From an archaeon (lineage in GTDB: Archaea; Asgardarchaeota; Thorarchaeia; Thorarchaeales; Thorarchaeaceae), in NCBI GenBank assembly GCA_024276825.1, contig JAJRWI010000037.1, forward strand, positions 28,786-92,785: a stretch of 64,000 bases of DNA, written 5' to 3'. Numbering within the stretch: position 1 is the stretch's first letter; each line of letters opens with the position of its first letter. Shown piece after piece: positions 5,647 through 56,230 of this stretch. Both the position numbers and the translations under genes were made by a program. A model generated the notes under the pieces. The model saw only the letters and a program-made list of their open reading frames with translations. It ran no database searches and was not told where the DNA came from.

Positions 5647-5810
5647 TGAACTGTAAATCTCAGAAGCGGAAAGATCGTGCAAAGTTATCATGTCAATCAG
5701 AATTGGGGCCATGACAAAAACTTGATGTTTCCACTTCTACTATCAGAAGATGGGAATGCATGGTCCTTGCTCGGACGGTTCATCTTTCGATGATAAGTTT
5801 AGAACATCCA
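5647..5810 (+). mobile_element. IS607-derived mini-element, copy D (shortest class, degenerate)
   Basis: Aligns by eye with the other four copies. MerR-HTH remnant (VSTSTIRRWE) joined at GAAtGCA to the right-end segment. End coordinate approximate. Confidence 0.7.
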
Positions 5811-5904
5811 TAGATCTCAGTAAAGAGATTTATTGAAGTTTTTTCTCACCAGTGAGAAAGGCTTATTTATACTCGGCCATCACTCCAATCAAATTCCAGC
5901 AACG

Positions 5905-5982
5905 GCCCCGGTAGTGTAGTCCGGTCCAGCATGAGGGACTCTCGATCCCTCGACCCGGGTTCAAATCCCGGCCGGGGCACCA
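5905..5982 (+). tRNA. tRNA-Glu(CTC)
   Basis: Acceptor GCCCCGG/CCGGGGC, anticodon arm AGGGA-CTCTCGA-TCCCT, TTCAAAT T-loop, encoded CCA. Confidence 0.95.
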
Positions 5983-5993
5983 CTACTTCCATA

Positions 5994-7973
5994 TCAAGAA
6001 CCGATAAGATATCTCTGTCTTAGAAAAGGGGCAATTGCTGAAAAAACAATCGTCATACAACTTGCTAGCAATCCATTAATCCCAATACCTTGGGCTGCAT
6101 GAGCTTGAGCTTGATTAATAATAATGAAAAAGGTTCCACTGGACTGAGCTAGCCCATTTATATGCCGCGTTTCATAATACAATAAGAATGTGCCATTCGA
6201 ATTGGGCATTGGAATGCTTAAGTAAATCACTCCAGATTCATCACTTTTTGTATAACCCTCCTGCTCAAGCCAATAGTAATCAAAGTCCAATCCATGAATT
6301 TGTGTTCCATTTCGAGCTATTGTTAGTAAATACATTGAAATTTGCCTTAATGGAACTACAAGACTATATGAAATCATAATAACATCGACAGGAATCTGGT
6401 GGGAAACGTGATATTCGTATCTGAACTCGCTTGAAAGATAATATGACGTATTATCTCCTTGAAAAATTAAACTCACATAATCAGGTCCATTTTCAGACTG
6501 TGCTCTACACTCGATAGATGCATATCCGCTCTCATTAGTAAGGATAAATTGGTGAAAAGATCCATTTTCCTTTGAAACTAGGAATCCCACTTCTGAAAGC
6601 GCCCCCACACTGTCCTCTAATCTACATGTCAGAGTAATTCTTTGCATGGGCATTGCATAGCCGCAAATGCTCTCGGCAATTATATTGAACCTTGGCTTTG
6701 ACCAAACATTAATGGTAATGTTCAATGTCTTATTACTGATAAATGGTTGATCAATTATAACAACGGTTAACGTTCTTGGTCCGTTTGGTCCAATCGGAAT
6801 GTATGGAATTTGGACCCTTTCAGTATTTTTTGTCTTAGTCCAATATGTATAGTTAGAAATTTGATCTGATACCCCAATAGTCATATTTTCATAGGGCCTG
6901 CCAAGAGCATCATTTATTGACAAAATTAAACTTGAATAAGAATAGGCAACAACCCTTTCGGGCAATATTGTCTTTAATATTGCCATACTATATACATTAA
7001 TTTCCATCTTTAAACTAGCTTTTTCATATCTGTAATTTCCTGAAAACTGCACTCCAATTATATGTTTACCAATGTCAACTGTGTTATTAATTATTATGGA
7101 GATGTTGGCAATACCTTCGCTATTTGTTATCCAAGTTCCCAAATATGTGTTATCAATAATAACATCAAGTTCTATCCCACTTAGTGGAATATCATTCGAA
7201 TGAACATAGAAAACTAAATTCATTGAATCATTAAGATTTGCATCCTTATTAACAAATCCAAACTCACTAATTGCAACTTGCAGTTGACGATATTCAATAA
7301 TGACGGTTTTAACAGCACCAAGACAAAACAATTGATCACTGTTAACGCTGACTAATTTCACAGCATTTGTTCCCAAATTAAATAAGGATGAATTATATTC
7401 AATCTTAAATTTAAAATAACCAGATGAATTTGTGAATGTTGAAAAAATATACTGATCATTAACAAAGGCTGATACACAGATGTTTGAAACACCATTGCCC
7501 ACATCATCGACTATTCGTGCGCTGATTGAATAATTATCTCCAGGGGCAAGAAGAGTATCATCTGACAATATGAGAATCTCTGTTCGTGAAAAAATTGTAA
7601 TCACAGTCCATTGAGCTGAGGGATCTAAAAACAAACTGTCATTCCCTCTGAATGTTGAATTAATTAATGTTTCACCAAGTGGCTGCGTCAATGGAATGTC
7701 CCATTGAATTGATGCAACTCCATTCTCATCTGTCAATGCCATTCCAAGAAAAATGTCATTTGTTTCATCATAAAACTCTATTCTCTGATTCGATATTGGA
7801 TCACCATATGTGATATTTTGTAGAAGAACTGCTGTAATAGTGATAGTATCCCCCCTACAAATTGGGGTTTCCTCCGCATTTACAAATACTGCTCCATTAT
7901 CCAGTATCATAATGACTGAAATTGCTATTGTTAATATTGCTAGTAATCGAGGAGCATTCATCATTATCACCAA
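5994..7973 (-). CDS. Secreted or membrane-anchored protein with repeated Ig-like beta-sandwich domains
   Basis: N-terminal signal peptide, recurrent TDENG/TNSSG/TNSEG/TNESG turns, many NxS/T sequons, C-terminal hydrophobic helix followed by RQR. Confidence 0.7.
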   Translation of the reverse strand: MVIMMNAPRLLAILTIAISVIMILDNGAVFVNAEETPICRGDTITITAVLLQNITYGDPISNQRIEFYDETNDIFLGMALTDENGVASIQWDIPLTQPLGETLINSTFRGNDSLFLDPSAQWTVITIFSRTEILILSDDTLLAPGDNYSISARIVDDVGNGVSNICVSAFVNDQYIFSTFTNSSGYFKFKIEYNSSLFNLGTNAVKLVSVNSDQLFCLGAVKTVIIEYRQLQVAISEFGFVNKDANLNDSMNLVFYVHSNDIPLSGIELDVIIDNTYLGTWITNSEGIANISIIINNTVDIGKHIIGVQFSGNYRYEKASLKMEINVYSMAILKTILPERVVAYSYSSLILSINDALGRPYENMTIGVSDQISNYTYWTKTKNTERVQIPYIPIGPNGPRTLTVVIIDQPFISNKTLNITINVWSKPRFNIIAESICGYAMPMQRITLTCRLEDSVGALSEVGFLVSKENGSFHQFILTNESGYASIECRAQSENGPDYVSLIFQGDNTSYYLSSEFRYEYHVSHQIPVDVIMISYSLVVPLRQISMYLLTIARNGTQIHGLDFDYYWLEQEGYTKSDESGVIYLSIPMPNSNGTFLLYYETRHINGLAQSSGTFFIIINQAQAHAAQGIGINGLLASCMTIVFSAIAPFLRQRYLIGS

Positions 7974-8093
7974 TGATTGTAAATTCTCACAAATTCTAAC
8001 TCTCCGATAACTAATAATCTCCTACAGGAAAATCTGTGGAGTTCTTATGTCGCGCAGAATACTATTATGTGATCAGAGGTTGAGGTCTTCGCA

Positions 8094-11000
8094 TTGCTAT
8101 CTTTCAAACATCCTCGGAAAAACCATTTAAAAACAAATGGAGCCCCCCCTTCATACATCCAAAAAATGCATAGATTTGTTGATAAATTTTGGATTTTTGT
8201 AACTCTAACAAATATATCATATTTTCTTATTGTGTACATCCTTCCCCTTTATACGACTTTACCCGTTCCCTATATTCCCACAAAATCATTTGTTGAGATT
8301 AGCCTATTTTTATGCACATTAATAATAAGCGGGCTTTTGCTATGGCATCGACTAGCACTTGATAAACTCAAATTAGAAACCGAAGACTTTCTATTAATAC
8401 TGAGCTATGGAAAAATGAGAATTGCCACATGTTGTCTAGAGATTGCATCAGTACCTGGATCAGTCACCCTTGATTCCGACTCAACCCCAAAATACAACAC
8501 TGCCATGTTGCTTGCAATCAGAGAGGGAATGTGTAAGAAATGCAACATTACTTACGAAGTTGGTATAGTCGATATGAAACCCTATCTTCGTATCTTCATT
8601 AGTTCTGTCCACCAGAATATCTCGGTCTTACGCGATATATTGCATAGAGAAGCTACCAGAATTGAAGCAATTCTTCTTGCGTCTTTAGGAAATGTTGAAC
8701 TAGAACTAATAAGAGGTAGATCTTTGGCGGATGCCGTGGTTTCATTACCTTCTAACATTAGCTTAGAAGATATAGACGGCCTTGTAAGAAGCACCCTTGA
8801 GCACCAAGCACTTTTGATAATTAGTGGTACTCCCTCAATTTCGCCCACTCAATCTTCATCTCAGATTGGGTCTCTAATATCAGCTGCTTTGCGTCAAGGC
8901 GACTCAATACGTTTTGTATGTACTTTCTCAAAAGCATCAATCGGAAAGAATCGCAAGAGTATGGAGAGTGAGTGGAAACATATTCGAGAACGAGAAAAAA
9001 GAAAGGAGGATACATTGGCTGATCAGATTGCAAAACGAAAACTAATCAAAGATTTTGATGAAACTTATGACAATGTTGGTTGGTTCAACACTTCTACATA
9101 TGTAATTTGCACAATTCATGATGATAAAGAAAGGCGAATGATAACCAATAGGATCTCTGGTCTGATACTTTCAATATGGGGTGGAAGGGGACTTTTGACA
9201 ATTAGGGAAATACCCATCAATACTCGCCGCCTAGTTAGAATAATAACTCGTCGTCATTTGCATGCAACTTCTATGCATGTTTCACGACTTGCAGCTTTTG
9301 TCAACACTCCCGTTCAGTATACTCCAGCTATTAGTCCTGTTGAAACGCCAGCCTTCAGTACTCCCCTGCCCTCCTTTGTTGAGAATGAAATTAATATTGG
9401 ACATGTGATATATGGTGGCCGAAAGATAAGCAAGGCAGGTCTAAAAATTGAATGGCTTAGAGAGCATATTGCCATACTTGGTGCCACTGGAACTGGGAAG
9501 ACCACTTTGGTAAAAAGAATAATGGCACAGTTATGTATAACAACTAAAATCCCGTGGTGGATTTTTGATATCAAGGGATCCGAATATGTTGAACTTGTTC
9601 AGAAGGCTGACCCGAGCATTTTAGTAATAAAGCCAGGTTTTGACTCTGGCTTCTCAATTGGCATATTAGAAACAGAAAGTGACGATGTGCAATATATGGT
9701 GGAGTCCACATTTCAACTATTGCGTGAACTATTGAAGGAACATAACACATCCTCGGAATTGACACCTGCAATGGAACGGCTCTTATATGAATCATTGATT
9801 AAACTTGCATCATCATAAAATCAGTCAATCACTGGTTTGATAAGCATTATTCAATCATTGTCTAAGAATCAAGAGTTCGGTGACTTGACCCGTGATGCAC
9901 TTATTAATCGCTTGCAGATTATCACGAGAAAACCTCTCAAAACTATATTCAGCACTAAAAGGCCTACGAAACTAGCCGATTTACTCAATAGGAGAGTAAT
10001 ATTTGATCTCAGTTATGTGGCCAGAAAGGGTGGACTTGATACAGCACGGTTTCTTTATAATCTGGTGGCCAAAAGAATTTTTGATAATGCAATGCGTAGA
10101 GGCATCAAGCAAGGCCTTCATCATGTAATAGTACTGGAAGAAGCAAACAATCTTGTACCCGAAAGCTATATTCGCTCATCATCTGCAGATGTGACAACTG
10201 GCGAATCCATGGTAATGCTGCAGAGGGCCACTGGTCAAGGTGTTATTGTAGTATCAACAAGACCAAACATATCCTCTAATATACTTGCAAATACAGCGAC
10301 CAAGATAATGTTTAGACTACCATATGATAGTGCAATTGGCGCTAGATTCCTGTCTCTAGATGAATCCCAAGAACGCTATTTGCGAATGTTGAAATGCGGT
10401 AAAGCTATTGTTGTAATGCCACACACAGAAGCCTTTGAAATTATTACCGAACCCTTCATCATGTCTGATTTCAAATCCGACGAAACTCATACTGGTTCTG
10501 AAGCGATCGAATATGGCCAAGAATCATTTGAACCAATGGAGTCAACAAGAAAGTCTGTAAAAGTGTTTGATAGAAACCCCGAGATATCTACTCATGTTGT
10601 TGCTTGGCTCGCATCACAAAAGATGGCAACCGAAGATCAATTGGTAAAGTTGTTACGATCAATCAACAATAGCATTGACAAATCTGATGCACAGGAGATA
10701 ATCAGTGACCTCGTATCAATCGGATCAATCGAACGTGAAGCCATCCCATTAGTGGATGGGGGTGCAATCTTTGCATTGCCTGGTCATGGACTAGAATCAG
10801 TCAGAAATGTAATATTAGAATTCATTAAAGAACGTCTTTACAAAACTAACATATCTGATACCGAAACGGACCCAATTGACCTGATAATTGATGATACTGC
10901 TATTATGATTATCACTGAACACATTACATCCTCACTTATTCATTTGGTCATCGAGAGAATAAAGTCAGTAATGATTGAACTGGGTCATGAAGTATCTCGA

Positions 11001-11825
11001 TTAATAGTCATAGTTCGTGGAAGTGTTGCAGCTGCAAAAATTCGAGAGATAATAATGAAAATGAATGAGTTTGATGCTGTTTCAATCATATCAGCATTTC
11101 CAAGTACATTAGAGAAACTTGTAGAGGAAATAAATCAATCAATATCTGATACCAATGAAATTCAATCCTCATATGTATCAACCAATCCCCCTTCTGAGAA
11201 TTTAATCGAGGCTGTTCATGATGTGGGCCATGCTTCGCATCGCGAAATTCAGATGCGATTATGGACAAGCTTGCTTCAGGAATTTGTGGAATCTTCTGAC
11301 GGCAGGTTAAAATGGCATCGCCTTCTCAATTTTATTGAAACAACATCAGTCCAATCATTGAAGAGCCGAACGATTCCTCTTAAGGCGGAAGATGGACGAC
11401 GTGCTTTGACCGAACTCCTTGCTGATGATGTGCTTGTTGCAATACGCTTTACAAGCAATTATACGTATAATAATATGGATGCAGGTCTCTGGGTTGTTAA
11501 TAGTACAGTTTTGGAAGAAATCAGAAATGCAATTACCAGATCTATTTTTGAGCAACTTGCCCAAAAGGGAATTAGCTCGCAAAATAACCATGGCTTTTTT
11601 GACCTTTGCGATTCACATCAATCATACATCGTATTTCCCACACAAGAGCAATTAAAAACAATTCTTGATATCACAAACTCAGAATATTGTAGAACTTGTC
11701 ATACAAAAAGAATTCTATGTATTCTACCTGCTTCTGAATATCTTCCAGATAATCAAAACGTACCTAATAGTTGTAAAATTGTTACCTTGGACTCAGAGTT
11801 TAAATTTATTCTAAATATGATATGA
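8094..11825 (+). pseudogene. Membrane-anchored HerA/VirB4-like (DUF87) ATPase interrupted by one in-frame TAA at 9816-9818
   Basis: ORFs 8094-9818 and 9837-11825 share a frame. Walker A HIAILGATGTGKT is in the first, Walker B VIVLEEAN in the second. Two N-terminal TM helices; likely start ATG 8166. Confidence 0.7.
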
Positions 11826-11832
11826 AATCTGA

Positions 11833-12627: not shown

Positions 12628-12751
12628 CTATAACTCACAATATTGAGAAAGAAACATCATTTAAAATTGACGACCTCAATTGTGACTGCAAGACAACCTT
12701 TTTATCCAAATATTGCAGAAAAACCTTGAACTCCAACAAAAGGGGTCCTGA

Positions 12752-13069: not shown

Positions 13070-13134
13070 GCTTAACACTTATTTCCTTTTACTCCTTTTT
13101 CAATCTGTTAAATACATAATTGGAGTTCCGCTAA

Positions 13135-14958: not shown

Positions 14959-14976
14959 CTCAATCAGTCACGATGA

Positions 14977-18959: not shown

Positions 18960-21725
18960 GTGTGTTACACATTACTAATAGAATTAAATGAAATGGTGAT
19001 GTTGCTATTGAACAGGTCAATCTTACTCGCATCCATGGCAGCTGTCCTTTTGGTCGCATCAATAGTGACTCCCGTTTCTGCTTACAATTTCGAGTACTAC
19101 TATTTCAAGACTGACAAGCTTGTTTATGAGGTTGGAGAAACAATTGATATGGTGGCAAAACTACTGGCTGAGTTTAGTAGTGAGGGTTGGTGCTATGTTT
19201 CTTTCGAAGTCATAACAGATCAAGGATCGATATTTTACGACTCTTACATGATCCCATCATCCTCATCACCCCAATACCCCTCTTCTAGTTATACCATACA
19301 TCCACAAGATACACAACCTGGTATAAATGGCACCTCATCTCAGGCAATTTTTTTCGTCAAGATATTTGATACACTATCTGACGAGCTGACAGATGTAGTT
19401 GATATTCAAATTAATCGTGGTAGTTTGGAGGTCATATCCCTCACACCTACATCTATCGAATATGGCATGAATACAACTCTTCAATTTAAAATACAGAGTA
19501 CTCACACAGAATTGATTCCATATGCGGGCCGTCCCGTTTCAATCCTATTGGAGGGATATTCTAATGAAACAATTTTCGCATATAACACGACCACAACAAA
19601 TGATGGGACCCTTAATATCAACTGGAATGCCACAACAGCCACACCCAACTCTTATAATCTGACAATTAGCACGCCCGGGGACTTCGATTTTAAGCCCATT
19701 TCGCAATCATTTGATATCACAGTGAATCCTGCAGGTTCATCGATTAATATTATCAACTATAATGACACGCTTTATTGTGTTAATCCTGACAAGACTAACA
19801 TCAACAATCTTACAGTCCTTGTGGAGCATATTGACAAATCAGGTGTTCCAATTACCAATAGCAGTATTTATTGGAAGACAGACTTCTCTCAAGGCACATT
19901 CACTGAATCTAGCCTTGGGACATATCTGGCATACATTCCAGTCAATACAAGCCCCAGAACAGTGATTGTGAATCTGTCTTCTTATAATCCACTGTATATG
20001 TCTGCAAATCTCTCACTTGAAGTAATCGTTCAGAAGAGGCCCGTATGCATACAGCTCTCTTCAATTGACAATGCAATATCAGGAGAACCCTTGAGAATCA
20101 GCATCAATGTTTACGACAATCTTACAGGCACTGGGATTGAAGCAGTTCAATTAACTATGAATCTGCAAATCAATGATAATTATTCCATCTCGTTATTTGG
20201 CATGACTAATCAGACAGGATGGGTCTTCTTCTCAACAAATATTCCTCCTGATACTTGGGGCAGCGCCTCTTTAAAAATAACCACGAATGATACTCAGTAC
20301 TACGATGCCTCAATTCATCAAGAATTATTCAATGTCACTTTCAATCCCAACATTACAATTAATGTCATACAACCCCCAATTATTGGAAATGAAACCATAC
20401 TCCAAGTACTTCTAACTGATCCAGCAAGATGCCCTCTCCCTTGGGTGAATATTAGTTGCTTTGATATATATGATAACCTGATTGCCTCCTCTATTACGGA
20501 CATTAATGGACTGTCCACACTTATTTGGTACGTGTCCAATAATAGTGCATACCTTCTTACAATTACTCTAATAATATCTGAAAATACATCTCTATTTCTC
20601 CACTCATACTCTTTGACTGCAAATTACTCAGCACTTTATCCTGTGCGATTTACATCAAGCACGAGTTTCTATGAATATCAACGTGGGGACAATGCAACCA
20701 TCTCTCTGAATCTGACCTCGGATTATTTGAATGACTCGTCATTGATGGTCAGTATCAATGATTCTCTAGGCGATTTCAGTCTAGATATAATTGTAAATAT
20801 TAATGATCCAATTGACCTACTTCTTCCAACATACTCATTTAGTCAAGTGGGGCCTCACACCCTACAATTCCGTGTTACAAACGAGTCAGTCTGTTTGACC
20901 AATGATTACCAGATTGTCATCTATTTATTTGGCAGTTTAAACACGAACATATCAGTCTTTTCAGCTTATTATGGCAATGGACTATCATTGAATATCACCT
21001 GCGTTGATGATGCTGAAATGTTCCTTCCCCTTGTGAATATGTCGTATTTAATTGATTGGGACCCCTCCACTGAAATTCTTTTGAAAAACATTCCTTGCAA
21101 TACACCCATAACCCTCCCGCTTCCATCAATAATCACTTTAGGATATCACACATTCTCAATTAATATATCCCGTTCTTGGTATCAATCAAGCAGTATTGTA
21201 ACTCAGATGACCGTTAGACTATATACCAAGATAGTACTAAACATCACTATTGTTCCCTATATCCCTTCTATTGAATCATCAAGCAATTCTCATGATGTTA
21301 ATACCGAAATAATTTCATCCGGATCAATCATTAGTCCGCCACCTATTTTGTTCAACATTACAACTTCAACATCACCAGCTGATGCTCTTTGTACTTCCCT
21401 TGAAAGCTGCCCTAAATTCAGCTCAGGTACCAATATTCTGTCCACCGTATTTGAAAACTCTTCAATCACTCTGTCTGGAAATGGCCATATTGCTCTCAAT
21501 CGAAGCGAACGAATCTTAGATGATATATTTTCATCAAACAATAACTCCTCTACTGCACGAGATGTACTGCCAAATGATATTATTCCCCACTCAGCTCTCT
21601 CTGGTCCAGAAATAATCACGTCCGTAAGGGAATCCAAGTTATTTCGAATTTTGTTATTGATTCTCCTGACTAGGTCATTATGGACTTTTGGGTCTGATGT
21701 CTTTCTGAATCCCTGCAAATCATGA
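18960..21725 (+). CDS. Large secreted Ig-like repeat surface glycoprotein
   Basis: Signal peptide ending VSA, TDKLVYEVGETI motif, TTNDG/TNQTG/TDING turns, many sequons. The last ~145 codons overlap korA on the opposite strand. Confidence 0.7.
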   Translation: MCYTLLIELNEMVMLLLNRSILLASMAAVLLVASIVTPVSAYNFEYYYFKTDKLVYEVGETIDMVAKLLAEFSSEGWCYVSFEVITDQGSIFYDSYMIPSSSSPQYPSSSYTIHPQDTQPGINGTSSQAIFFVKIFDTLSDELTDVVDIQINRGSLEVISLTPTSIEYGMNTTLQFKIQSTHTELIPYAGRPVSILLEGYSNETIFAYNTTTTNDGTLNINWNATTATPNSYNLTISTPGDFDFKPISQSFDITVNPAGSSINIINYNDTLYCVNPDKTNINNLTVLVEHIDKSGVPITNSSIYWKTDFSQGTFTESSLGTYLAYIPVNTSPRTVIVNLSSYNPLYMSANLSLEVIVQKRPVCIQLSSIDNAISGEPLRISINVYDNLTGTGIEAVQLTMNLQINDNYSISLFGMTNQTGWVFFSTNIPPDTWGSASLKITTNDTQYYDASIHQELFNVTFNPNITINVIQPPIIGNETILQVLLTDPARCPLPWVNISCFDIYDNLIASSITDINGLSTLIWYVSNNSAYLLTITLIISENTSLFLHSYSLTANYSALYPVRFTSSTSFYEYQRGDNATISLNLTSDYLNDSSLMVSINDSLGDFSLDIIVNINDPIDLLLPTYSFSQVGPHTLQFRVTNESVCLTNDYQIVIYLFGSLNTNISVFSAYYGNGLSLNITCVDDAEMFLPLVNMSYLIDWDPSTEILLKNIPCNTPITLPLPSIITLGYHTFSINISRSWYQSSSIVTQMTVRLYTKIVLNITIVPYIPSIESSSNSHDVNTEIISSGSIISPPPILFNITTSTSPADALCTSLESCPKFSSGTNILSTVFENSSITLSGNGHIALNRSERILDDIFSSNNNSSTARDVLPNDIIPHSALSGPEIITSVRESKLFRILLLILLTRSLWTFGSDVFLNPCKS

Positions 21726-22429
21726 GTTGATCCTGTAATTAGCAGATTATGTCCATCCCCAAATCTAGGCATTATGGCATGCCCATCATCATCCTGTTCA
21801 CCATAAGGGCGTTGGCCCCTAAATGCAAACCTTCTCCTTACAATATGATCTCTCTCTTCATTGATTATAACTCTCTCTCGTGAATGTGCAACAACCTCAT
21901 CAGTGAGAAGAACTACTGGGTGTCGCAGGTATTCTGATATGCGAAATGCTTTGATTGTCAACTCAAAAGTTTCTTGTGCTGAATTCGGAGCAAGAACAAC
22001 ACTCTCATAATCTCCGTGAGTGCCCCATCTTGATTGCATGATGTCCCCTTGCGCAACTTTCGTTGCTTGCCCAGTACTTGGGCCTGCTCTCTGGACATCA
22101 ACAATTACAATTGGGGTCTCAGTCATGGCAGCATATCCGATATTCTCCTGCATGAGACTGAATCCGGGCCCTGAAGTAGCAGTCATTGATAAGACACCTC
22201 CCCAAGAGGCTCCGATTATTGCTGAGATCGCTCCAATCTCATCCTCCATCTGAAGATAGACGCCTCCAAGTTCTGGCAACTTGAGTGACATTATCTCTGC
22301 AATTTCAGAGGCAGGAGTGATTGGGTATCCTGCAAAAAACCTGCATCCTGCAGCAATTGCAGCCTCTGCACATGCTTGATTTCCCTGCCAAAAATGCACA
22401 CCATCACTTTTTCTGGTCATGAGCAGCAC
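21290..22429 (-). CDS. korA: 2-oxoacid:ferredoxin oxidoreductase alpha subunit
   Basis: GYPITPASE, QMEDEI, TATSGPGFSLMQE, QRAGPSTG. Confidence 0.9.
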   Translation of the reverse strand: MLLMTRKSDGVHFWQGNQACAEAAIAAGCRFFAGYPITPASEIAEIMSLKLPELGGVYLQMEDEIGAISAIIGASWGGVLSMTATSGPGFSLMQENIGYAAMTETPIVIVDVQRAGPSTGQATKVAQGDIMQSRWGTHGDYESVVLAPNSAQETFELTIKAFRISEYLRHPVVLLTDEVVAHSRERVIINEERDHIVRRRFAFRGQRPYGEQDDDGHAIMPRFGDGHNLLITGSTHDLQGFRKTSDPKVHNDLVRRINNKIRNNLDSLTDVIISGPERAEWGIISFGSTSRAVEELLFDENISSKIRSLRLRAIWPFPDRVIEEFSNTVDRILVPELNLGQLSREVQRASAGDVEVVMLNKIGGGLMIDPDEIISVLTS

Positions 22430-22490: not shown

Positions 22491-22664
22491 GACAGCCTGA
22501 ACTTGTTCAAACTTGTCATTGGAGGATGAATCAGTCTGAACAAGGATCATGCGTTTCCATCTTCTGAGAGTGGAAGTTGAAACACCTGTTTCTTTGCCAT
22601 GACTTCTGCTCTGACCAACATGACATCTTTGCACAAGTTTTCCACTTCTGAATCTCACAGTCCG
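22491..22664 (-). mobile_element. IS607-derived mini-element, copy E (shortest class)
   Basis: The reverse strand reads GVSTSTLRRW joined at (G)AAACGCA to the right-end hairpin CTTGTTCAGAC...GTTTGAACAAG and the terminus CAGGCTGTC. Confidence 0.8.
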
Positions 22665-22699: not shown

Positions 22700-22804
22700 G
22701 CGACCGTAGTCTAGTTTGGTTAGGACGGAGGCCTCCCAAGCCTCCAACCCGGGACGGCTTTGTGCATACACGCCGCGGGAATTCAAATCCCGGCGGTCGC
22801 ACCA
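22700..22804 (+). tRNA. tRNA-Gly(CCC) with 28-nt intron at 53/54 (22754-22781)
   Basis: Anticodon arm GAGGC-CTCCCAA-GCCTC. BHB: CCCG/CGGG helix with GG|A and AA|T bulges; removal restores CCGGG-TTCAAAT-CCCGG. Confidence 0.9.
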
Positions 22805-44489: not shown

Positions 44490-45996
44490 TCAAATGGAAC
44501 CACCACATTTACGACTCGGAACTGTGATTTGTACTGATAATGGGCCCAATGTTCTTGAATTCTCGTTTGTCACTGATGACTCTGGAAGCGAGGTAATTGT
44601 TCGCAGGGGTCAGTTTGTTTCAGTCATTACAAAACATGGTACTATAATAGCCCGTGTTCAGAACCTCATTCGCACAAATAGATATTATCAACATGCTGAG
44701 GCCGTACGTGAATACCAGTCACGCGGCGAACCTCTACGCTCAATATTTCCAACAGACCGCTGGATGTATACAATTGCTGAAGCACGAGTGCTGGGTTTAT
44801 GGGCTGACAATCACACCACTCGTCCATACTTTGCAGTTTCACCAGGTGCGGTTGTCAGACCAGTTGATGATGAAACTCTATCATCATTTCTTGGCATAGA
44901 TAATCATGGCGGATTGAAGCTTGGGACTTTGGCACATCACGCTGTGGAATTCACTCCTAATCTGTCAGGTCTACTCTCAAAACATCTTGCAATTCTGGCT
45001 ATGAGTGGTGCAGGAAAGTCATATTTTGTTTCGGTACTATTGGAAGAATTGCTGTCCAGATCAAAGGAGTCTGGCCGCCTTGCTACAATCATTATTGACG
45101 TTCATGGTGAATATTCATATCTGAATGAAATTGACCCCCAGACTCTCGGAAAGGCCTCTGTAGAAATAGAACATGTGCGTGGTTCACATTATCAGATTGC
45201 CGTTGACTCATTGACCGTTGAGGGGCTTGCCTCGTTTGCAATTGAAATGAGCCCAGTTCAATTAAGGGATCTGAAACGAATTATATCTGGGCTCCGACAA
45301 GGATTTGATCATGGATACACCCTGAAAGACATAATCGAAGCAGTAAGAATGGATGAAACGATCAACAAGAACACAAGGGACGCTCTTATTGGTTGGATCA
45401 GTAATTTGGAAAGCACTAACCTCTTTGGAAAGGAGGCTACTCCGAAAATTGAGAACATGATCCGACCAGGCAAGTTGACAATAATCGATCTCAGTGATTT
45501 CATCTCACTCCGAAAGAAACAGATTATAGTTTCAAACCTAGCTCATGAACTACTCAGCAAAAGACGCTCGGGAAAGATCCCTCCCTTCCTATTGATTCTG
45601 GAGGAGGCGCATCAGTTTTGTCCCGAGAGTCGACAAGAACTGGCACTTCCAAAAGCAAGGATTGAAACAATTGCCAGGGAGGGCCGCAAGTTCTTTGCAC
45701 TTCTCTGTCTTATTTCACAACGCCCTGTGAAACTATCAACAACTGTATTGAGTCAATGTACTAATCAGGCAATCTTCAGATGCACCAACCCCTATGATCT
45801 CGAACACATTGGTCGTACAAGCGAGGGGATTGATAGGGCTGCGCTGGACGCAATAACAACTCTTGAAGTCGGAGAGGCCCTCTTCATTGGTGAGTGTGTG
45901 ACTGTACCAACGTTTGTCAAAATTCGTAAACGCCTTTATAATCCTCCCCATTCACAGACTGACCTGTTTGAAACAATCAAGAAATATGACAAATAA
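44479..45996 (+). CDS. herA: HerA helicase
   Basis: HAS barrel, HLAILAMSGAGKS, DVHGEY, EEAH, AREGRKF, SQRP. Confidence 0.9.
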   Translation: MEVDQMEPPHLRLGTVICTDNGPNVLEFSFVTDDSGSEVIVRRGQFVSVITKHGTIIARVQNLIRTNRYYQHAEAVREYQSRGEPLRSIFPTDRWMYTIAEARVLGLWADNHTTRPYFAVSPGAVVRPVDDETLSSFLGIDNHGGLKLGTLAHHAVEFTPNLSGLLSKHLAILAMSGAGKSYFVSVLLEELLSRSKESGRLATIIIDVHGEYSYLNEIDPQTLGKASVEIEHVRGSHYQIAVDSLTVEGLASFAIEMSPVQLRDLKRIISGLRQGFDHGYTLKDIIEAVRMDETINKNTRDALIGWISNLESTNLFGKEATPKIENMIRPGKLTIIDLSDFISLRKKQIIVSNLAHELLSKRRSGKIPPFLLILEEAHQFCPESRQELALPKARIETIAREGRKFFALLCLISQRPVKLSTTVLSQCTNQAIFRCTNPYDLEHIGRTSEGIDRAALDAITTLEVGEALFIGECVTVPTFVKIRKRLYNPPHSQTDLFETIKKYDK

Positions 45997-46229
45997 TGAA
46001 CCGTAAATTTCAGAAATGGAAAACTTGTCATGTCAGTCAGAATTTGAGTCATGGCAAAAAGACTTGGTGTTTCCACGTCTACCCTTGGAAGGTGAGAACG
46101 CAAGGGACTGTTCACCCCACTCTCAAGAAACCCGATGAGTGGTGACACTTGTGAGGAAGGGCTGAACGCATGGTCCCTGTTTAGACGAATTCATCTCTTG
46201 ATGACAAGTTTGGATAAGCTCAGGTCGTC
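45997..46229 (+). mobile_element. IS607-derived mini-element, copy A (~235-bp class)
   Basis: Encodes the remnant MAKRLGVSTSTLGR*ERKGLF; high visible identity to 55987-56230; ends CAGGTCGTC. Confidence 0.85.
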
Positions 46230-46241
46230 AATAAAGTTCAG

Positions 46242-46661
46242 TCATGTTGATGCAACATCTACCATCTGTCTTGGTGTGTTATCTATTGACACATCCCACT
46301 CAATCCCACTCGGATAGTTGAAATCTGGTAAACACCTACATCTAGCAATCCACTTCCAGCAGGGGGCGCCATTTACTCGTTCAAGTTGATATAGATTGGC
46401 TGTGGTCGCATTTATCTTGACCTCCAAAATGGTCCAATCTGGTAACGAGTCCAAGTCTGCGACTTCAAGGACCCATTTACCACTCTTTGCTTTTATTATG
46501 CGTGAAAGATAACATCTGAATGTCTTTCCATTTGCATCCTCAAGCAATACTGCCACATGGGGGCGCGAAATTGGATCCCACTGAATTGGTGTTGCTGGTC
46601 GTCTTACTAGCACATGGGTTTCAGCTTGATTCGAAATCTCATGTGATTTCCGGTGGGGCAT
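46242..46661 (-). CDS. Hypothetical protein
   Basis: 139-aa ORF filling the gap; no recognisable motif. Confidence 0.5.
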   Translation of the reverse strand: MPHRKSHEISNQAETHVLVRRPATPIQWDPISRPHVAVLLEDANGKTFRCYLSRIIKAKSGKWVLEVADLDSLPDWTILEVKINATTANLYQLERVNGAPCWKWIARCRCLPDFNYPSGIEWDVSIDNTPRQMVDVAST

Positions 46662-47257: not shown

Positions 47258-47287
47258 TTTTAATAGTGTGCATAGACACAAAAAAAG

Positions 47288-47590: not shown

Positions 47591-47629
47591 TAATCTGCGG
47601 AATTACCATCATGAACATCAATAACACTT

Positions 47630-49322: not shown

Positions 49323-49345
49323 TATGACCCAACCCTTTCAAATAA

Positions 49346-50149: not shown

Positions 50150-50180
50150 TTCTCATTACCTCTCTATCTTTGACCAACTC

Positions 50181-50206
50181 TTTTTATGAATCATGATTCA
50201 TAAAAA
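50181..50206. promoter_or_regulatory. Perfect 26-bp palindrome upstream of the NifX/MinD operon
   Basis: TTTTTATGAATCA|TGATTCATAAAAA, overlapping the expected TATA region. Confidence 0.65.
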
Positions 50207-50295
50207 CTAATCGGTGCGCCCACACCTCTTCTAAAAAAATTTCCATAACTTTTTACATGACAATGTTGAACTAGTTTCATTCAAGAAAGTTCAAG

Positions 50296-51525
50296 GTGCT
50301 AATGAGCATGGGATTCAGTGTGGGTATAGTCGGAAAGCCATCATGCGGGAAAACATCTTTTACTAATGCAGCTTGCATGACCGATTTCAAGGTTGGAAGC
50401 TATCCTTTTACAACAATTGAGGCGAATGTGGGAGTTGCTCATGTGAGAACAGAATGTGTATGCAAAGAGTTCAACGTGGATGATAATCCACAGAACAGTA
50501 TATGCATTGATGGCATTAGACTGATTCCCGTTAAACTAATTGACGTTGCAGGACTTGTGCCTGGTGCGCATAAAGGTCGCGGAATGGGAAACAAGTTTCT
50601 AGATGATCTGAGACAGGCAGATGTTTTAATACATATCGTTGATGCAAGCGGCGCACTTGACGCTGAAGGGCAGGAGGTTTCTGAAGGAACATATGATCCT
50701 GTGGATGATGTGCGATTCCTAGAGAAAGAGATAACCGAGTGGATTCTGGGAATAGTTCAAAAGGACTGGCGAAGAATCTCTGGCCGTATCAGATCCGAAG
50801 GGGCAAAACTCGATGAAATGCTCCTAGAAAAGCTCTCAGGTCTCAATGTAAAAAAGGCCCATATTCTAAAGGCAATTCGTGAATCGGGCTTGAAGGCAGA
50901 AAATGCTGACAAATGGAATGATGATGAGATTCGAAGATTCATAAGAACCCTCCAGCAGATTGCAAAACCAATCATTATTGCGGCCAATAAGATTGACAAG
51001 CCCGATGCACAATCAAATTATATACGGCTCAAGGAGGCCTTCCCAGACTATCTAATAATGCCAGTCAGCGCTCTTGCTGAACGAGTATTAAGAGAGCTCG
51101 ACAAGAAGGGCATCATTAAGTACATTCCAGGTGATACTGATTTTGATATTATTCAACCTGAAAAACTGAATGATAAAGAGATAGCTCAACTGGAGAAGAT
51201 TAAGGGAGAAATCCTTCAGAAATATAATGGAACTGGTGTTCAGAACATTCTGAACAGTGCTGTGTTTGACTTTCTTCATATGATAACAGTCTATCCTGTA
51301 TTTGATGTCAACACCCTGTCGGACAGCAATGGGAATGTCTTGCCTGATGTCTACCTCGTTCCTGAAGGTATCACAGCAAAAGAGTTTGCAGGAGTAATCC
51401 ATACTGATCTCATGGAATCATTTATCCATGCCATCGATGCAAGGACCAAGATGCGAATATCTGACAAGCATGTTCTTGAAGACAGAGCCATTATTAAGAT
51501 TGTCAGCGCAAAAGGCGCAAAGTGA
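50296..51525 (+). CDS. ychF: OBG-family YchF-like GTPase/ATPase
   Basis: GKPSCGKT, YPFTTI, DVAGLVPGAH.G.G.GN.FL, NKID, C-terminal TGS domain. Confidence 0.88.
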   Translation: MLMSMGFSVGIVGKPSCGKTSFTNAACMTDFKVGSYPFTTIEANVGVAHVRTECVCKEFNVDDNPQNSICIDGIRLIPVKLIDVAGLVPGAHKGRGMGNKFLDDLRQADVLIHIVDASGALDAEGQEVSEGTYDPVDDVRFLEKEITEWILGIVQKDWRRISGRIRSEGAKLDEMLLEKLSGLNVKKAHILKAIRESGLKAENADKWNDDEIRRFIRTLQQIAKPIIIAANKIDKPDAQSNYIRLKEAFPDYLIMPVSALAERVLRELDKKGIIKYIPGDTDFDIIQPEKLNDKEIAQLEKIKGEILQKYNGTGVQNILNSAVFDFLHMITVYPVFDVNTLSDSNGNVLPDVYLVPEGITAKEFAGVIHTDLMESFIHAIDARTKMRISDKHVLEDRAIIKIVSAKGAK

Positions 51526-51530
51526 TCTTA

Positions 51531-52070
51531 CTACTTAGTTATCCTCTCTCCCAGCAACCGGTATTGGCCCGACAAAGGAAGATACGTGAACAACTCCATC
51601 TTGCTAGGTGTAAACTTGCCTGACTCGTCCATAACGCCATCATCAACATGCACTGCTACGACCTCTGCAATGAACAAATCATGAGCTCCAAGACTCACAA
51701 CCTGACTTGTCTTACACTCAATGTTAATGGGGCACTCTTCTATCAATGGAGATGCCACTTTAGACGCTTTGCCTTCAGTAAGATTGCACTCTGCGAACTT
51801 GTCATGGTCCCTGCCTGATTTTGTCCCGCAGAACACCGTTGCATCAAATAGATCTCTTGAGGGGATATTTAACACAAAATCTCCCGCATTTTTCACAAGT
51901 GCATGACTGAACCTGTTTGGTCTTATCCCCACTGCAACTGTTGGCGGATCGCTACAGACATTTGCGACCCATGAAAGCGTTATTATGTTTGATCTTGGAA
52001 TTCCAGCAACACTCAACAGGACTACAGGACACGGCACAACTGCCGTGGTTGGTCTGATATCTTCTTTCAT
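51531..52070 (-). CDS. Flavin reductase family protein
   Basis: P.PVVL, GTKSGRD.DKF, P.IEEC...EC, GAHDLFIAEV. Confidence 0.88.
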   Translation of the reverse strand: MKEDIRPTTAVVPCPVVLLSVAGIPRSNIITLSWVANVCSDPPTVAVGIRPNRFSHALVKNAGDFVLNIPSRDLFDATVFCGTKSGRDHDKFAECNLTEGKASKVASPLIEECPINIECKTSQVVSLGAHDLFIAEVVAVHVDDGVMDESGKFTPSKMELFTYLPLSGQYRLLGERITK

Positions 52071-52166
52071 ATGTGAACAGATTCTCCTTCCTCAAAAAAG
52101 CTTACGACAGCAAGTTTAAGTTTAACTTGACTTGGTCTGACTCAATAACTCAGAGAGGTTGTCAGT

Positions 52167-53078
52167 ATGGCACGAGTGTTAGTTGCAGATCCGATAGCTG
52201 ACTCAGCCAGAGTCAAGATAGTAGAGGCAGGTTTCGAAGTGGTGGTTCGAGATAAGGAAAATGATGGTCCTCTGACAGAGCAAATCAAGGGCTTTGATTG
52301 TATAATAGTTAGAAGCGCTACAAAGGTGACCCGTGAAGTCTTCGAAGCGGCTGATAATCTAAAACTTGTTGTCAGGGCGGGTGTAGGACTCGATAATGTT
52401 GATCTTGAAGCGGCAAAAGATCATGGTGTAAAGGTATTGAACACCCCAGAGGCCCCCACAGTTTCAGTAGCAGAGATGGTCTTTGCCCTAATGTTTGCTC
52501 TAGCACGAAGAATCACACAGGCAGACAATCTGATGAAGAGGGAAGAATGGGCTAAAAAGAAGCTTAAGGGTGTTGAACTATGGCAAAAGACCCTCGGCAT
52601 AATTGGGTTTGGACGAATTGGATATGAAGTGGGTAAGAGGGCAAAGGTTCTAGGAATGAAGGTCCTTGCCTATGATGTGGTTGACATCGATAAACTCTGC
52701 AAAGATATTGGGGCCAAACGCGTTGAGTTCGATGAACTACTAAAGAGATCCGATTTTGTTACAATTCATGTACCACTACTCCCGCAGACCCGTGCACTCA
52801 TCAGTAGTGAACAGTTCAAGATGATGAAGGATGGCGCTTTTCTAATCAATACAGCTCGTGGTGGTGTTGTAGATGAGAAGGCACTTTTGGAGGCTCTGGA
52901 TGCTGGACTGATTGCAGGAGCAGCGCTTGATGTGTTTGAGAGTGAACCTCCCACCGACTGGGCCATCGCAAGACACCCCAAAATAATTGCAACCCCACAT
53001 TTATCATCATCAACAGTTGAGGCTCAAGTCCGGGTTGGTGAACTCACTGCACAAAAAGTGATTGATGAACTGACCTAA
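52167..53078 (+). CDS. D-2-hydroxyacid dehydrogenase (short SerA-like)
   Basis: RAGVGLDN, GFGRIG, INTARG, DVFESEP, TPH. Confidence 0.88.
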   Translation: MARVLVADPIADSARVKIVEAGFEVVVRDKENDGPLTEQIKGFDCIIVRSATKVTREVFEAADNLKLVVRAGVGLDNVDLEAAKDHGVKVLNTPEAPTVSVAEMVFALMFALARRITQADNLMKREEWAKKKLKGVELWQKTLGIIGFGRIGYEVGKRAKVLGMKVLAYDVVDIDKLCKDIGAKRVEFDELLKRSDFVTIHVPLLPQTRALISSEQFKMMKDGAFLINTARGGVVDEKALLEALDAGLIAGAALDVFESEPPTDWAIARHPKIIATPHLSSSTVEAQVRVGELTAQKVIDELT

Positions 53079-53084
53079 GCAATC

Positions 53085-53726
53085 TGAAATAGTAATCTTC
53101 AGATGAATGAAAGATATTCAAACTTGCCACGTTAGTCAGAATTGGAGTCATGGCGGAGAGGCTTGGAGTTTCCGTTTCCACTCTCTGAAGATGGGAACGC
53201 AGGGGACTCTTCTTACCCACTCTCAGGACACCCAGTGGGGACAGGCGTCATGAGACCTCCCCCAACTGATCATCCAACTCAGAGAGGAAACATGCATCAG
53301 TCTATGCACGGGCCTCATCATCGGTTTTTATACAAGCTTAAATTATGTCTGATGAATTCCCTATTGGACTAGCACACTGGGCATCGAAGAAACCCAGACG
53401 TACGAAAGCCCGAGGGAAGAAGACTTCTCGAGGGAGGTCCTTACCTCCTCGCAGCCATACTGCATTGCATTGGAAGGGGTCCGCGGTGGCAAGGACCATG
53501 CAGAGCACTCTGTGTGAGTACGACGACCCCCACTGTGTCCGGAGATGATGCGACCGGGGCAACACAGGGGGGCGGAGGCCAGTTCTGCGACAGTGCAGAA
53601 AAAGTCCCTGCAAACACTGGACATGTTCTGGTGGGTGGTAACACCTGCAGGGGAAGGGCTGAACGCATGAGTCCTGTTCAGACGAGTTCACCACTGTGCG
53701 ACAAGTCTGAACAGGATTAGGTTGTC
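53085..53726 (+). mobile_element. Degenerate IS607-family element, copy C (tnpA remnant, probable tnpB remnant, right end)
   Basis: LVRIGVMAERLGVSVSTL*RWERRGLFLPTLRTPSGDRRH (MerR-HTH), then YARASS (serine resolvase YARVSS), then a GC-rich eroded coding remnant, then the perfect hairpin CCTGTTCAGAC/GTCTGAACAGG. Confidence 0.85.
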
Positions 53727-53744
53727 ACCAATCGTTACACCTTT

Positions 53745-53788
53745 AAGGATCCCTTATGGAATTCAACTTGGTTCCATAAGGGATCCTT
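53745..53788. repeat. Perfect 17-bp inverted repeat upstream of rpl15e
   Basis: AAGGATCCCTTATGGAA-N10-TTCCATAAGGGATCCTT. Confidence 0.8.
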
Positions 53789-53885
53789 GTTCCTTTGTGT
53801 TGGCGGATGAGTCCGCTTGGGATGTGGCCCGCTTCGGGCTGAACCACAAACAAAGAGAATAGAACACTGCAAAGGAAGTAAGAAT

Positions 53886-54467
53886 ATGTCAGCATACAAG
53901 AGAATGAATGAAATCTGGTTGCAACACCAGAGAGAACGATCTGACCTCGTCAGAAGTAGACTGATTATTTGGAGAAAGCAAGGCACTATTGTACGTCTTG
54001 AACGCCCAACCCGACTGGGACGAGCAAGGTCTCTGGGATACAAGGCAAAACAGGGCTATATCATAGTGCGAGTTAAGACAGGTCGTGGTCCTAGAGAAAA
54101 GCCTAGACCAAGGATGGGGCGAAAACCACGAAGTCTGGGAGTCACAAAATATACCCCTCAGAAATCAAGACGTTGGATTGCTGAAGAACGTGTTGGAAGA
54201 AAGTTCCCCAATTTACGAGTACTGAACTCATACTGGGTTGGGTCTGATCATAAATGGGTCTGGCATGAAGTAATTCTTGTTGATCCAAACCACCCTGTGA
54301 TATACAACGACCCACACATCAACTGGATATGTGATTCCGTTCATAAGGGTAGAGAAAACAGGGGCCTTACATCTGCTGGGAAAAGAAGCAGGGGTTTAAG
54401 AAGAAGAGGGCGTGGTGCTGAAAAGATACGCCCCTCCCTACGAGCACGCGGTAATCGTGGCAAGTAG
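53886..54467 (+). CDS. rpl15e: 50S ribosomal protein L15e
   Basis: MSAYK, RPTRL.RAR.LGYKAKQG, LRVLNSYWV, RGLTSAG. Confidence 0.97.
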   Translation: MSAYKRMNEIWLQHQRERSDLVRSRLIIWRKQGTIVRLERPTRLGRARSLGYKAKQGYIIVRVKTGRGPREKPRPRMGRKPRSLGVTKYTPQKSRRWIAEERVGRKFPNLRVLNSYWVGSDHKWVWHEVILVDPNHPVIYNDPHINWICDSVHKGRENRGLTSAGKRSRGLRRRGRGAEKIRPSLRARGNRGK

Positions 54468-54482
54468 TTGGATGGAATATTC

Positions 54483-54941
54483 ATGCCCATTGTCGACCGG
54501 ATAGAGGCCAGAGCATACTCTTACGAAACAGAAGTGACTGAGCGAGTAGTATCTGCTGTAGTCAATCTATTTCCAAGTGATATCCGTCCAAGCCTTGAAG
54601 TTCGCACACAAAAGACTGATGGACACTCACATACCACAATTATCGTGGTCAATGCCCTTCTCACTGGGAACAGAAAATGCACGGGTGCCTTTGATCACAT
54701 GATACATAGACTGAGTCATGAAGACCGACGAAATCTTCTGCGGTCATTGGATCTTCGCCTTAACGATGACTGCGTCCTCTTTCTAAGGTTCGATAAGCAA
54801 CAGGCCTACCTTAATGAAATAAGGCTTCAAAATACTCCCGATGTGATAAGAGTGCAGGTTCATATACGATATTATCCGCGCTGTGATAGGAAACAAGCTA
54901 TATCCGATCTGCAGGAATTACTTGAGAGAGAACTTGATTAA
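54483..54941 (+). CDS. RNA-binding protein (COG1325-like) of the rpl15e-RNase P operon
   Basis: ETE...V..A, GH...I, LFLRFDKQ.A; conserved archaeal position after rpl15e. Confidence 0.75.
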   Translation: MPIVDRIEARAYSYETEVTERVVSAVVNLFPSDIRPSLEVRTQKTDGHSHTTIIVVNALLTGNRKCTGAFDHMIHRLSHEDRRNLLRSLDLRLNDDCVLFLRFDKQQAYLNEIRLQNTPDVIRVQVHIRYYPRCDRKQAISDLQELLERELD

Positions 54942-54991
54942 TAAGTGTCAAAATGCATTTGCAAAGTATCTAAACCAATGAGTGAATGTAA

Positions 54992-55681
54992 ATGCATGTC
55001 GATATGAATGTCAATATCACCAAGCCCGAGCAGATACCCCACTTTGTAAAGATGGCCAAAAATATGGGCCTTGATGGTCTTGCTGTTACATGTAATATCG
55101 ATAAACCAGTTATAACTTTCGAAGATGGATTTCGTTTATACAAACGTGCATGTCTCAAACAGGCCACCCTGCCCGCCTTGAAAACGAGGGTCTCACAAAT
55201 AAGAAGGTTCGTGATGATTGTTGCGGTTCCACTCAGGTCTGTCCAACTTGCAAACTGGGCAGCGGACGATGCAAGAGTGGATTTACTTACATTGAGTGGA
55301 ATATCAAAGGAAGAGTCTTTGAAGTCATCGACTGCACGGCTTGCAGCCTCATCAGGCACTGCATTGGAGGTACAGATGGCATCCCTTCTCACAAACTTCG
55401 GGCTTGATAGATCAAGGGCTATTAAGACATTTCGTGAGTCCATTCGGATTGCACAGTCTGCAGGGATGCCAATCATCTTATCAAGTGGTGCCAAATCACC
55501 AATGATGTTGCGTTCTCCTCGGGCCATGCTTCACATTGCCAGACTTTTAGGGATTGACGACCCAGACTTTATGGAGAATATGTCCCATACTATTGAAAAA
55601 ATGCTATCTCAGAATCAACGAAAGCTCAGCAATGACTACATTGCTCCGGGAATGGAAATTGTGTGGAGGCCCGATCAATAA
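54992..55681 (+). CDS. rnp3: RNase P protein component 3 (Rpp30)
   Basis: PHP-like fold, RVDLL, IILSSGA.S...LRSPR; operon context. Confidence 0.85.
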   Translation: MHVDMNVNITKPEQIPHFVKMAKNMGLDGLAVTCNIDKPVITFEDGFRLYKRACLKQATLPALKTRVSQIRRFVMIVAVPLRSVQLANWAADDARVDLLTLSGISKEESLKSSTARLAASSGTALEVQMASLLTNFGLDRSRAIKTFRESIRIAQSAGMPIILSSGAKSPMMLRSPRAMLHIARLLGIDDPDFMENMSHTIEKMLSQNQRKLSNDYIAPGMEIVWRPDQ

Positions 55682-55989
55682 TGAGAACTGAGCGAAAGAG
55701 GTATGTCAGATTCAGACTCTTCAGAGATGGCCCTCCCATCAATGAGAAAAGACTGGCAATTGAGATTCGAAGGAATCTATTGTCCCTCTTTGGTGAGATT
55801 ATTGTTGCTGACTCGAAGTTCTTTCTGACCCAGTATGATGAAACCAATGGGACAGGAATCCTACAATGCAATGAGAAAACTCTAGAGCACGTACTGACTG
55901 CAGCATCATTACTATACAAGATAGACGACACACTTGTGTCATTTAAGCCTATCAAGACTTCAGGCACAATCAAAGCAGTTCAAAAATGA
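55681..55989 (+). CDS. rnp2: RNase P protein component 2 (Pop5/Rpp14)
   Basis: ERKRYV.F, LFGE, GILQC, TSGTIK. Confidence 0.85.
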   Translation: MRTERKRYVRFRLFRDGPPINEKRLAIEIRRNLLSLFGEIIVADSKFFLTQYDETNGTGILQCNEKTLEHVLTAASLLYKIDDTLVSFKPIKTSGTIKAVQK

Positions 55990-56230
55990 AACTGTAATAT
56001 TCAGAAGTGGAAAGGTTGTGCAGGCTGTTGTGTTAGTTGTAATTGAAGTCATAGCAAAGAAACTTGGAGTTTCCACATCTACTCTTGGAAGGTGAGAACG
56101 CAAGGGACTGTTCACACCCACATTCAAGACACCAGTGGGTGGTGATACTTGTGGTGAAAGTGCTGAACGCATGGTCCTTGTTCAGACAAGTTCATCTTCT
56201 GATAACAAGTTTGAATAAGTTCAGGTCGTC
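55987..56230 (+). mobile_element. IS607-derived mini-element, copy B (~240-bp class)
   Basis: Remnant IAKKLGVSTSTLGR*ERKGLFTPTFKTP, joined at GTGGG to the right end; ends CAGGTCGTC. Confidence 0.85.

Follow-up and report, generated by a model that had tools for sequence, protein, structure and literature searches.

The elements closest to those reported here are insertion sequences (IS) of the IS607 type and gene-less derivatives of insertion sequences. IS607, IS1535 and ISC1926 lack terminal inverted repeats; they carry short direct repeats and an imperfect inverted repeat lying at unequal distances from the two ends, and in IS1535, TnpA covers 8-78 bp at the left end (Chen et al. 2018, PMC6188088). 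TnpA-S acting in trans excises and integrates a CboIStron mini-IS from which tnpA and tnpB are missing; the CboIStron omegaRNA extends as far as the right end and directs TnpB to the donor joint, and TnpB/omegaRNA homing has been established experimentally (Zedaveinyte et al. 2023, PMC10690162). Another described case is that of the PATE-like elements of IS200/IS605 type, which are gene-less and carry omegaRNAs (Meers et al. 2023, PMC10055086). In Sulfolobus, the 320-bp SMN1 is a natural gene-less element reported to depend on the ISC1733 transposase (PMC3718332). Here, we analyzed 64,000 nucleotides of a Thorarchaeaceae genome (contig JAJRWI010000037.1, positions 28,786 to 92,785, forward strand), referred to as the window, which contain five homologous segments. 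We consider it very probable that these segments belong to a gene-less family of about 20 copies derived from an IS607-type insertion sequence.

An earlier note on this DNA, made from the letters alone, had described the five segments as non-autonomous IS607 derivatives. All five align with one another, and their conserved blocks fall within about 4 nt of where that note had placed them. We assigned them to short (S), middle (M1) and long (L) classes as follows.

5647..5810, + strand: S copy; left end with tnpA helix-turn-helix (HTH) stub, GAACGCA junction, final ~95 nt of the right end
22491..22664, - strand: S copy; between the gene at 21290-22429 (- strand) and an intron-containing tRNA gene (22700-22801)
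45997..46229, + strand: M1 copy; junction ..CC(A)GTGGG/TGGTGA, HTH frame with a TGA stop
53085..53726, + strand: L copy of 642 bp; left end, tnpA relic, TATA-like box, full omegaRNA scaffold, right end
55987..56230, + strand: M1 copy; junction and TGA-stopped HTH as in the 45997 copy, with which it pairs in the tree (support 86/88)

As had been claimed, all copies open with a TGAA-like sequence followed by C(A/T)GTAA..TTCAGA, and all close with AGG(T/C)(T/C)GTC except the degenerate 5647 copy. The latter (nhmmer E values of 1.1e-26 for the left end and 2.2e-10 for the right end) starts 20 nt past the stop codon of the open reading frame (ORF) 4406-5626. The 45997 copy is flanked on both sides by AATAA (45992-45996 and 46230-46234) and fills the spacer of two convergent ORFs, leaving 0 nt free on one side and 12 nt on the other. 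Every copy of the family is intergenic, and the element often occupies the whole gene-to-gene spacer. The order of parts is left end, tnpA stub, omegaRNA and right end, and the layout is therefore the IS607 arrangement minus its genes. The proposed IS607 origin and non-autonomous status are borne out by the HTH and catalytic-serine stub of tnpA on the left, the tnpB tail and omegaRNA on the right, and the absence of terminal inverted repeats.

The left side of each copy begins with ~65 nt of non-coding sequence. An ATG follows, opening the frame M-A-K/E-K/R-L-G-V-S-T/V-S-T-L-R-R-W-E-R, which in the long copies extends to ..TPGGHRRYE...VYARVSS.

53150..53320, + strand: dead tnpA stub of the long copy; MerR-type HTH and YARASS, two in-frame TGA stops, Pfam MerR 34.5 bits

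The dead MerR-HTH frame noted previously was recovered as GVS(T/V)STL(R/G/*)RWE in each copy, with Pfam MerR scores of 43.8 and 34.5 bits against a cut-off of 28.2 when in-frame TGA codons were read through. The relic also matched positions 3-65 of the NCBIfam IS607 transposase model NF033518 (E value of 1.5e-5), below the full-length cut-off of that model. YAR(V/A)SS is the catalytic motif of serine recombinases; the 642-bp copy keeps it as YARASS, as had been claimed, at 53303-53320, and the motif shares its reading frame with the ATG at 53150. The serine recombinase with a MerR-like HTH that marks the left end of IS607 elements is thus present here as a relic only.

The ends of the elements resemble those of IS607 elements. 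They lack terminal inverted repeats, the tips sharing just a 3-nt TGA/TCA symmetry, and they carry short direct repeats (TCAGA(A/C) occurs three times in the left end) and an 11- to 12-bp subterminal inverted repeat, which is set in by 36 nt on the left and by 25 nt on the right.

53117..53128, + strand: left arm of the subterminal repeat, TTCAAACTTGCC; family consensus CA[A/G]ACTTGTC, putative TnpA binding site
53700..53712, + strand: right arm of the subterminal repeat, GACAAGTCTGAAC

The two arms covary by subfamily, the S and M copies pairing CAAACTTGTC with GACAAGTTTG and the L copies pairing CAGACTTGTC with GACAAGTCTG. On the left, every copy retains ~120 nt that include the TCAGA(A/C) repeats, one repeat arm and the first 17-57 tnpA codons; on the right, every copy retains at least 95 nt that include the other arm and the omegaRNA 3' end. 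The family had been called MITE-like (miniature inverted-repeat transposable elements) without terminal inverted repeats. The absence of terminal inverted repeats stands, but a subterminal inverted repeat exists; with neither terminal inverted repeats nor a fixed target duplication, the elements are MITE-like only in being small, non-coding and multicopy.

With their boundaries, the elements read (TGRR)C(A/T)GTAA ... AGGTYGTC(AG), a trailing AG being frequent. At the 22491 locus, homology of the host DNA in the same-genus genome G002 extends through ATCGGA, and thus the four bases of this copy that align with the consensus TGAA are host DNA. We read TGRR, most often TGAA, as a target motif resembling a target-adjacent motif, and the element proper would start at C(A/T)GTAA. 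We also considered as a repeated target the conserved stretch of 21 nt that precedes the first left-end GG, together with TYGTCA after AGG; this candidate was rejected, as both are absent from the empty site in G001. No consistent core dinucleotide common to both junctions was found across the copies.

The earlier note had proposed a comparison of filled and empty sites to define the boundaries and the target motif. The same-genus genomes G001 and G002, with nucleotide identity of about 70%, have an empty orthologous site at three of the five loci in the window: in G001 it is shorter by about 637 nt at the 53085 locus and by about 246 nt at the 55987 locus, and in G002 the flanks of the 22491 locus are adjacent, about 161 nt shorter. 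Synteny with G001 is broken at the 45997 locus, and at the 5647 locus only a tRNA was matched. None of 85 further genomes from the same family-level group yielded these ends. The empty sites, along with the copies found elsewhere in the genome, support mobility of the family.

A profile built from the five segments and separate left-end and right-end nhmmer profiles were run against the assembly, a metagenome-assembled genome (MAG) of 2.94 Mb in 82 contigs that is 98% complete. This search returned about 20 loci (16-17 left ends and 17-18 right ends). Both ends are present at 13 loci; the others are halves at contig ends (C47, C36 and both ends of C12) or one-ended fragments (C67 and C24). Eight of the ~20 loci lie on one 92.8-kb contig, that of the window (Poisson probability of about 5e-7), and exactly five fall inside the window. 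Because of this clustering, the window is a hot spot rather than a sample of a very abundant family, and the many more copies expected genome-wide did not materialize. Among the partial copies, inward-pointing right halves of the long type occupy the two ends of the 14.5-kb contig C12 (1-262 and 14230-14487), and C47 (1-343) and C36 (1-330) end in matching left halves, with 100% identity between the two over the last 107 nt. The 14-kb C12 segment is probably flanked by two long copies in inverted orientation, which would have broken the assembly.

In the 642-bp copy, the right part is GC-rich and is conserved in eight other genomes of the family-level group. The same RNA sequence lies directly after the RuvC-III motif ..ADKNG(S/A)INI.. 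of 558-amino-acid (aa) TnpBs in G002, G005 and G010, and directly after a 549-aa TnpB on contig C24 of this genome. Since the TnpB reading frame continues through part of the scaffold, the stretch is protein tail and RNA at once.

53366..53726, + strand: predicted omegaRNA scaffold, from the tnpB 3' tail region to the right end (19-sequence alignment A4)
53336..53343, + strand: TATA-like box GCTTAAAT, 22 nt upstream of the first omegaRNA helix (GGACUAG)
53325-53332: second TATA-like candidate, TTTTTATA

In alignment A4, the consensus fold comprises 85 pairs, and 96.6% of the cells pair normally. Double-sided changes occur in 43 of the 85 pairs, compared with 19 in shuffles (0 of 500 reach 43) and 6-16 with slid partners. 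On this covariation, the right part is identified as the omegaRNA scaffold of this TnpB clade, ~350 nt long and complete in the 642-bp form. The IS607 arrangement of tnpB and an omegaRNA running into the right end is, again, found as a relic only. The long class alone (53085-53726, C4 and the contig-end copies) provides a gene-less element with a full, foldable omegaRNA beside a transposon end, and the M and S classes retain just the last 60-130 nt of it. Rfam at gathering thresholds detected only tRNAs and an eL15 leader in the whole window, and nothing for the elements. A group I intron or IStron reading was dropped, as a scan of 53000-53800 at E<=10 gave no ribozyme, intron or omegaRNA family.

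The GCTTAAAT box recurs at the identical 22-nt spacing in the remaining long copies and also, in G003, G008 and G018, in mini-elements whose ends are unrelated, and is missing from the tnpB-linked versions; we infer that it is a putative archaeal omegaRNA promoter. Long-type copies share 95-99% identity over their last ~125 nt, compared with about 60% for the tnpA relics and 70-80%, with compensatory changes, for the omegaRNA arms. As the conserved block starts identically in all pairs, constraint on a 3' module of TnpA sites and guide-proximal scaffold is suggested over patchy gene conversion. The ~125-nt identity thus points to such constraint, with homogenisation as the alternative, and the long-form lineage seems to have stayed under selection at the RNA level. 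Multicopy gene-less elements of ~560-600 nt with the same omegaRNA and other ends occur in G003, G008 and G018 (L027, L029, L030, L034, L036, L039 and L041) and in G005 and G020 (L024, L028, L032, L035, L038 and L040). One group is CTAG-flanked with TGTCAGA repeats; in the other, ATGTAAGAAA marks the two ends and the right end bears an IS605-like hairpin.

These features allow two further readings of the long form. In the first, it would be a living, protein-less and promoter-equipped guide-RNA transposon lineage, or a set of co-opted trans guides for the resident TnpB. Such a lineage would have lost its genes once and then diversified under selection for the omegaRNA fold and the near-invariant 125-nt 3' module; it would depend on TnpA and TnpB of other elements and may insert atypically (TGRR target, no GG core, occasional 7-bp duplications). 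Taken jointly, we give this combination a small yet real chance. In the second, the long copies would be promoter-driven guide-RNA genes, a domesticated or hyperparasitic omegaRNA set, kept by selection for the single resident TnpB. The near-identical 3' module beside diverged relics, the evenly spaced TATA-like box, the presence of one same-clade tnpB and the precedent of PATE elements, which for IS605 carry omegaRNAs that a TnpB would have to use in trans (PMC10055086), all speak for it. We nevertheless regard it as unlikely: the 24-nt putative guide flanks returned only self matches and chance-level ones in the genome, with no trans targets, which is expected of selfish homing and not of a host function; the omegaRNA of the resident TnpB itself is considerably different; and the right-end identity may reflect homogenisation. 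That tnpB, the sole one of the assembly (G000:C24:45302-46951, L050), encodes 549 aa of the same clade within IS605-like hairpin ends. It lies just downstream of a tRNA gene whose partial 3' end (GCTCGCTCCGGGC) recurs past the element, resembling an attachment-site duplication.

The microhomologies reported at the junctions are real in the long copy, with GAACGCA at 53195-53201 and 53661-53667 and GTGGG at 53235-53239 and 53631-53635. Instead of the three size classes proposed, we found at least five junction classes genome-wide.

Class L, 640-680 bp: window 53085, C4 and contig-end halves
Class M1: window 45997 and 55987, and C35:55994 (with an extra 33-nt deletion)
Class M2: C24:27934
Class M3: C7
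Class S: six copies, window 5647 and 22491 among them

In a tree of 188 shared columns, one clade contains L and M2, and the other contains every S, M1 and M3 copy (98/96 support). The short copies are therefore placed in a sister subfamily, contrary to the view that they are deletions of the 642-bp form. Grouping the six GAACGCA-junction S copies as one clade cost 14 log-likelihood units and was rejected by the approximately unbiased (AU) test (p=0.023), the group having been named after the first tree was inspected. In addition, the copy at C28:13916, outside the window, combines the S junction with a C7/L-like right end. These two results indicate that the GAACGCA deletion arose at least twice, and consequently a shared junction alone is no proof that a deleted form was mobilised. 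In the C28:13916 copy, the last ~46 nt of the right end are tandemly doubled (G000:C28:14083-14123), directly after the first AGGTTGTCAG.

The long-form junction behaves differently. It has no microhomology, is of unique sequence (GGTTTTTRTAYRAGCTTAAAT) and is common to C28L, C4L, C47 and C36 (83-100% identity; 86% across the junction), the tnpA relics of which are 60-81% identical. Because such a junction is common to at least four loci with diverged relics, the long-form deletion occurred once and the gene-less element then spread and diversified. The two window M1 copies share their junction plus derived changes (GR*ER). The earlier note had argued from shared junctions that the deleted forms were themselves mobilised; this is well supported for the long form and plausible for the ~240-bp form, but the shared S junction, which recurred, is no proof of it.

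The same data bear on a simpler history, in which a full-length IS607 element at each locus was trimmed independently at the same short repeats and no deleted form ever transposed. The rejection of the S copies as one clade, the mixed copy at C28:13916 and the ability of a 7-bp direct repeat to seed recurrent deletion would all fit such decay in place. It would not readily account for the long-form junction at four or more loci, for the M1 copies that share both junction and GR*ER changes and pair in the tree, or for the fact that no full-length copy is left anywhere in the genome, and we judge it quite improbable.

Taking the family as IS607-derived, we propose the following model. The parent consisted of a left end, a serine-recombinase tnpA, a tnpB with its omegaRNA, and a right end. 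One deletion removed most of tnpA and nearly all of tnpB, sparing the ~350-nt omegaRNA scaffold and giving the long form; in the shorter forms, sequence was deleted between two short direct repeats, either GAACGCA (on more than one occasion) or GTGGG. An IS607 TnpA acting in trans would coat the end repeats, excise the element as a circle and insert it beside a TGRR motif, most often TGAA, with no regular duplication of the target. That ~120 nt of left end, including the tnpA start, are always kept would follow from this coating, which in IS1535 covers 8-78 bp (PMC6188088). The long form may be transcribed from its own TATA-like box, and its omegaRNA may load a TnpB supplied in trans, one same-clade tnpB being present in the genome. 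The guide would be the flank 3' of AGGTTGTC, and the donor site, once emptied, would be cleaved by TnpB, in the manner of TnpB homing.

Several observations weigh against this model. An intact IS607 parent with tnpA, tnpB and the same ends, which the earlier note had proposed to look for, was found neither in this genome nor in 85 family genomes nor in public contig collections. A PF00239 (Resolvase) search of the 98%-complete assembly gave zero matches. Intact IS607 TnpAs (NF033518) occur in 18 of the 86 family genomes, and the nearest of them are distant from the relic (33-50% protein identity among family genomes, 40-50% for the best). By nhmmer, the ends of NF033518-matching elements in these 86 genomes have no nucleotide similarity to the family ends. 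Against 5.8 billion proteins, the relic had a single match, an unrelated high-GC bacterial TnpA of 50% identity, and degenerate end patterns gave one chance match in genome_contigs and none in metagenome_contigs. The terminal GG typical of IS607 is missing, and most copies have no GG before the left end. Two of 11 copies have abutting direct repeats of 7/7 and 6/7, which IS607 should not make (0 of 110 mismatched flank pairs reach 6). Finally, given the recurrence of the S junction, the short copies need not all have transposed as short forms. As no TnpA is detectable in the assembly, the family is either now immobile or its driver is unassembled; a repeated 2.5-kb parent element could be absent from a MAG assembly. 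The only other TnpA relic (G000:C81:166331-166743; L043 1370-1930, minus strand), also of IS607 type, is unrelated and belongs to a different family. It is a 136-aa TnpA stub fused to a C-terminal TnpB fragment, with the canonical ends TGGG|TAGCGCG ... ACAATGAACGG|T (TGGG|..AACGG|).

Movement by a target-duplicating transposase, with the tnpA stub incidental, would suit these two 7-bp repeats, the AATAA at a third copy and the lack of terminal GG, but it is highly improbable, as flank matches are 3/7 or fewer in nine of 11 copies, young long-type ones included, terminal inverted repeats are absent, and the stub stands exactly at the IS607 position within a fitting end architecture.

The IS607-derived family can now be set beside the described systems. 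It resembles the IS607 family in its end architecture, in the MerR-HTH serine recombinase on the left and tnpB with its RNA on the right, both implied by relics, and in a retained left end of ~80-120 bp, comparable to the TnpA-coated 8-78 bp of IS1535. It differs in that both genes are gone, the termini lack GG, the flank is TGRR and not (T)GGG, two copies have 7-bp repeats, and no autonomous member with these ends is known. As in CboIStron, the target motif abuts the left end, TGRR being comparable to TGGG there. The CboIStron mini-IS, however, is engineered and bears a group I intron, whereas the elements here are natural, archaeal and intron-less, with other end and target sequences, and their omegaRNA (about 350 nt) is much larger. 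Like PATE, they are protein-less, keep transposon ends and omegaRNA and would need a TnpB from elsewhere; unlike PATE, which has IS605 hairpin ends and a Y1 transposase, they have IS607-type ends and a serine-recombinase relic. SMN1 is likewise a natural archaeal non-autonomous element, reported to be mobilised in trans by ISC1733, an element of the IS607 family. The present elements have no sequence relationship to SMN1, which is not known to have omegaRNA content or a nested deletion series.

Further observations concern the surroundings of the copies. The right flank of the 45997 copy (window 46230-46253, AAAGTTCAGTCATGTTGATGC) has near matches of 17-20 nt on contigs C36, C74, C8 and C33; it falls in the 3' end of ORF 46242-46661 (- strand), and a paralogous gene family or another repeat is possible. 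Directly 3' of the long copy, at 53743-53790, lies a perfect 17-bp palindrome (AAGGATCCCTTATGGAA / TTCCATAAGGGATCCTT), just ahead of the Rfam eL15 ribosomal-protein leader (53803-53850); the G001 sequence differs at this position. Two tRNA genes in the window, at 22700-22801 (102 nt) and 60706-60809 (104 nt), are found by Rfam and missed by ARAGORN, and presumably contain introns.

Gene-less IS607/IS605 derivatives and stand-alone omegaRNAs have already been described, and this family is no new kind of system. It provides a natural deletion series of an archaeal IS607-type element, in which ~120 nt of the left side, ~95 nt of the right side and the covarying subterminal repeat are the parts kept in cis. 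One gene-less lineage within it retained a large omegaRNA fold through long divergence. Together, these copies would make compact substrates on which serine-TnpA transposition, as well as the pairing of TnpB with omegaRNA, could be tested for Asgard-type archaea.

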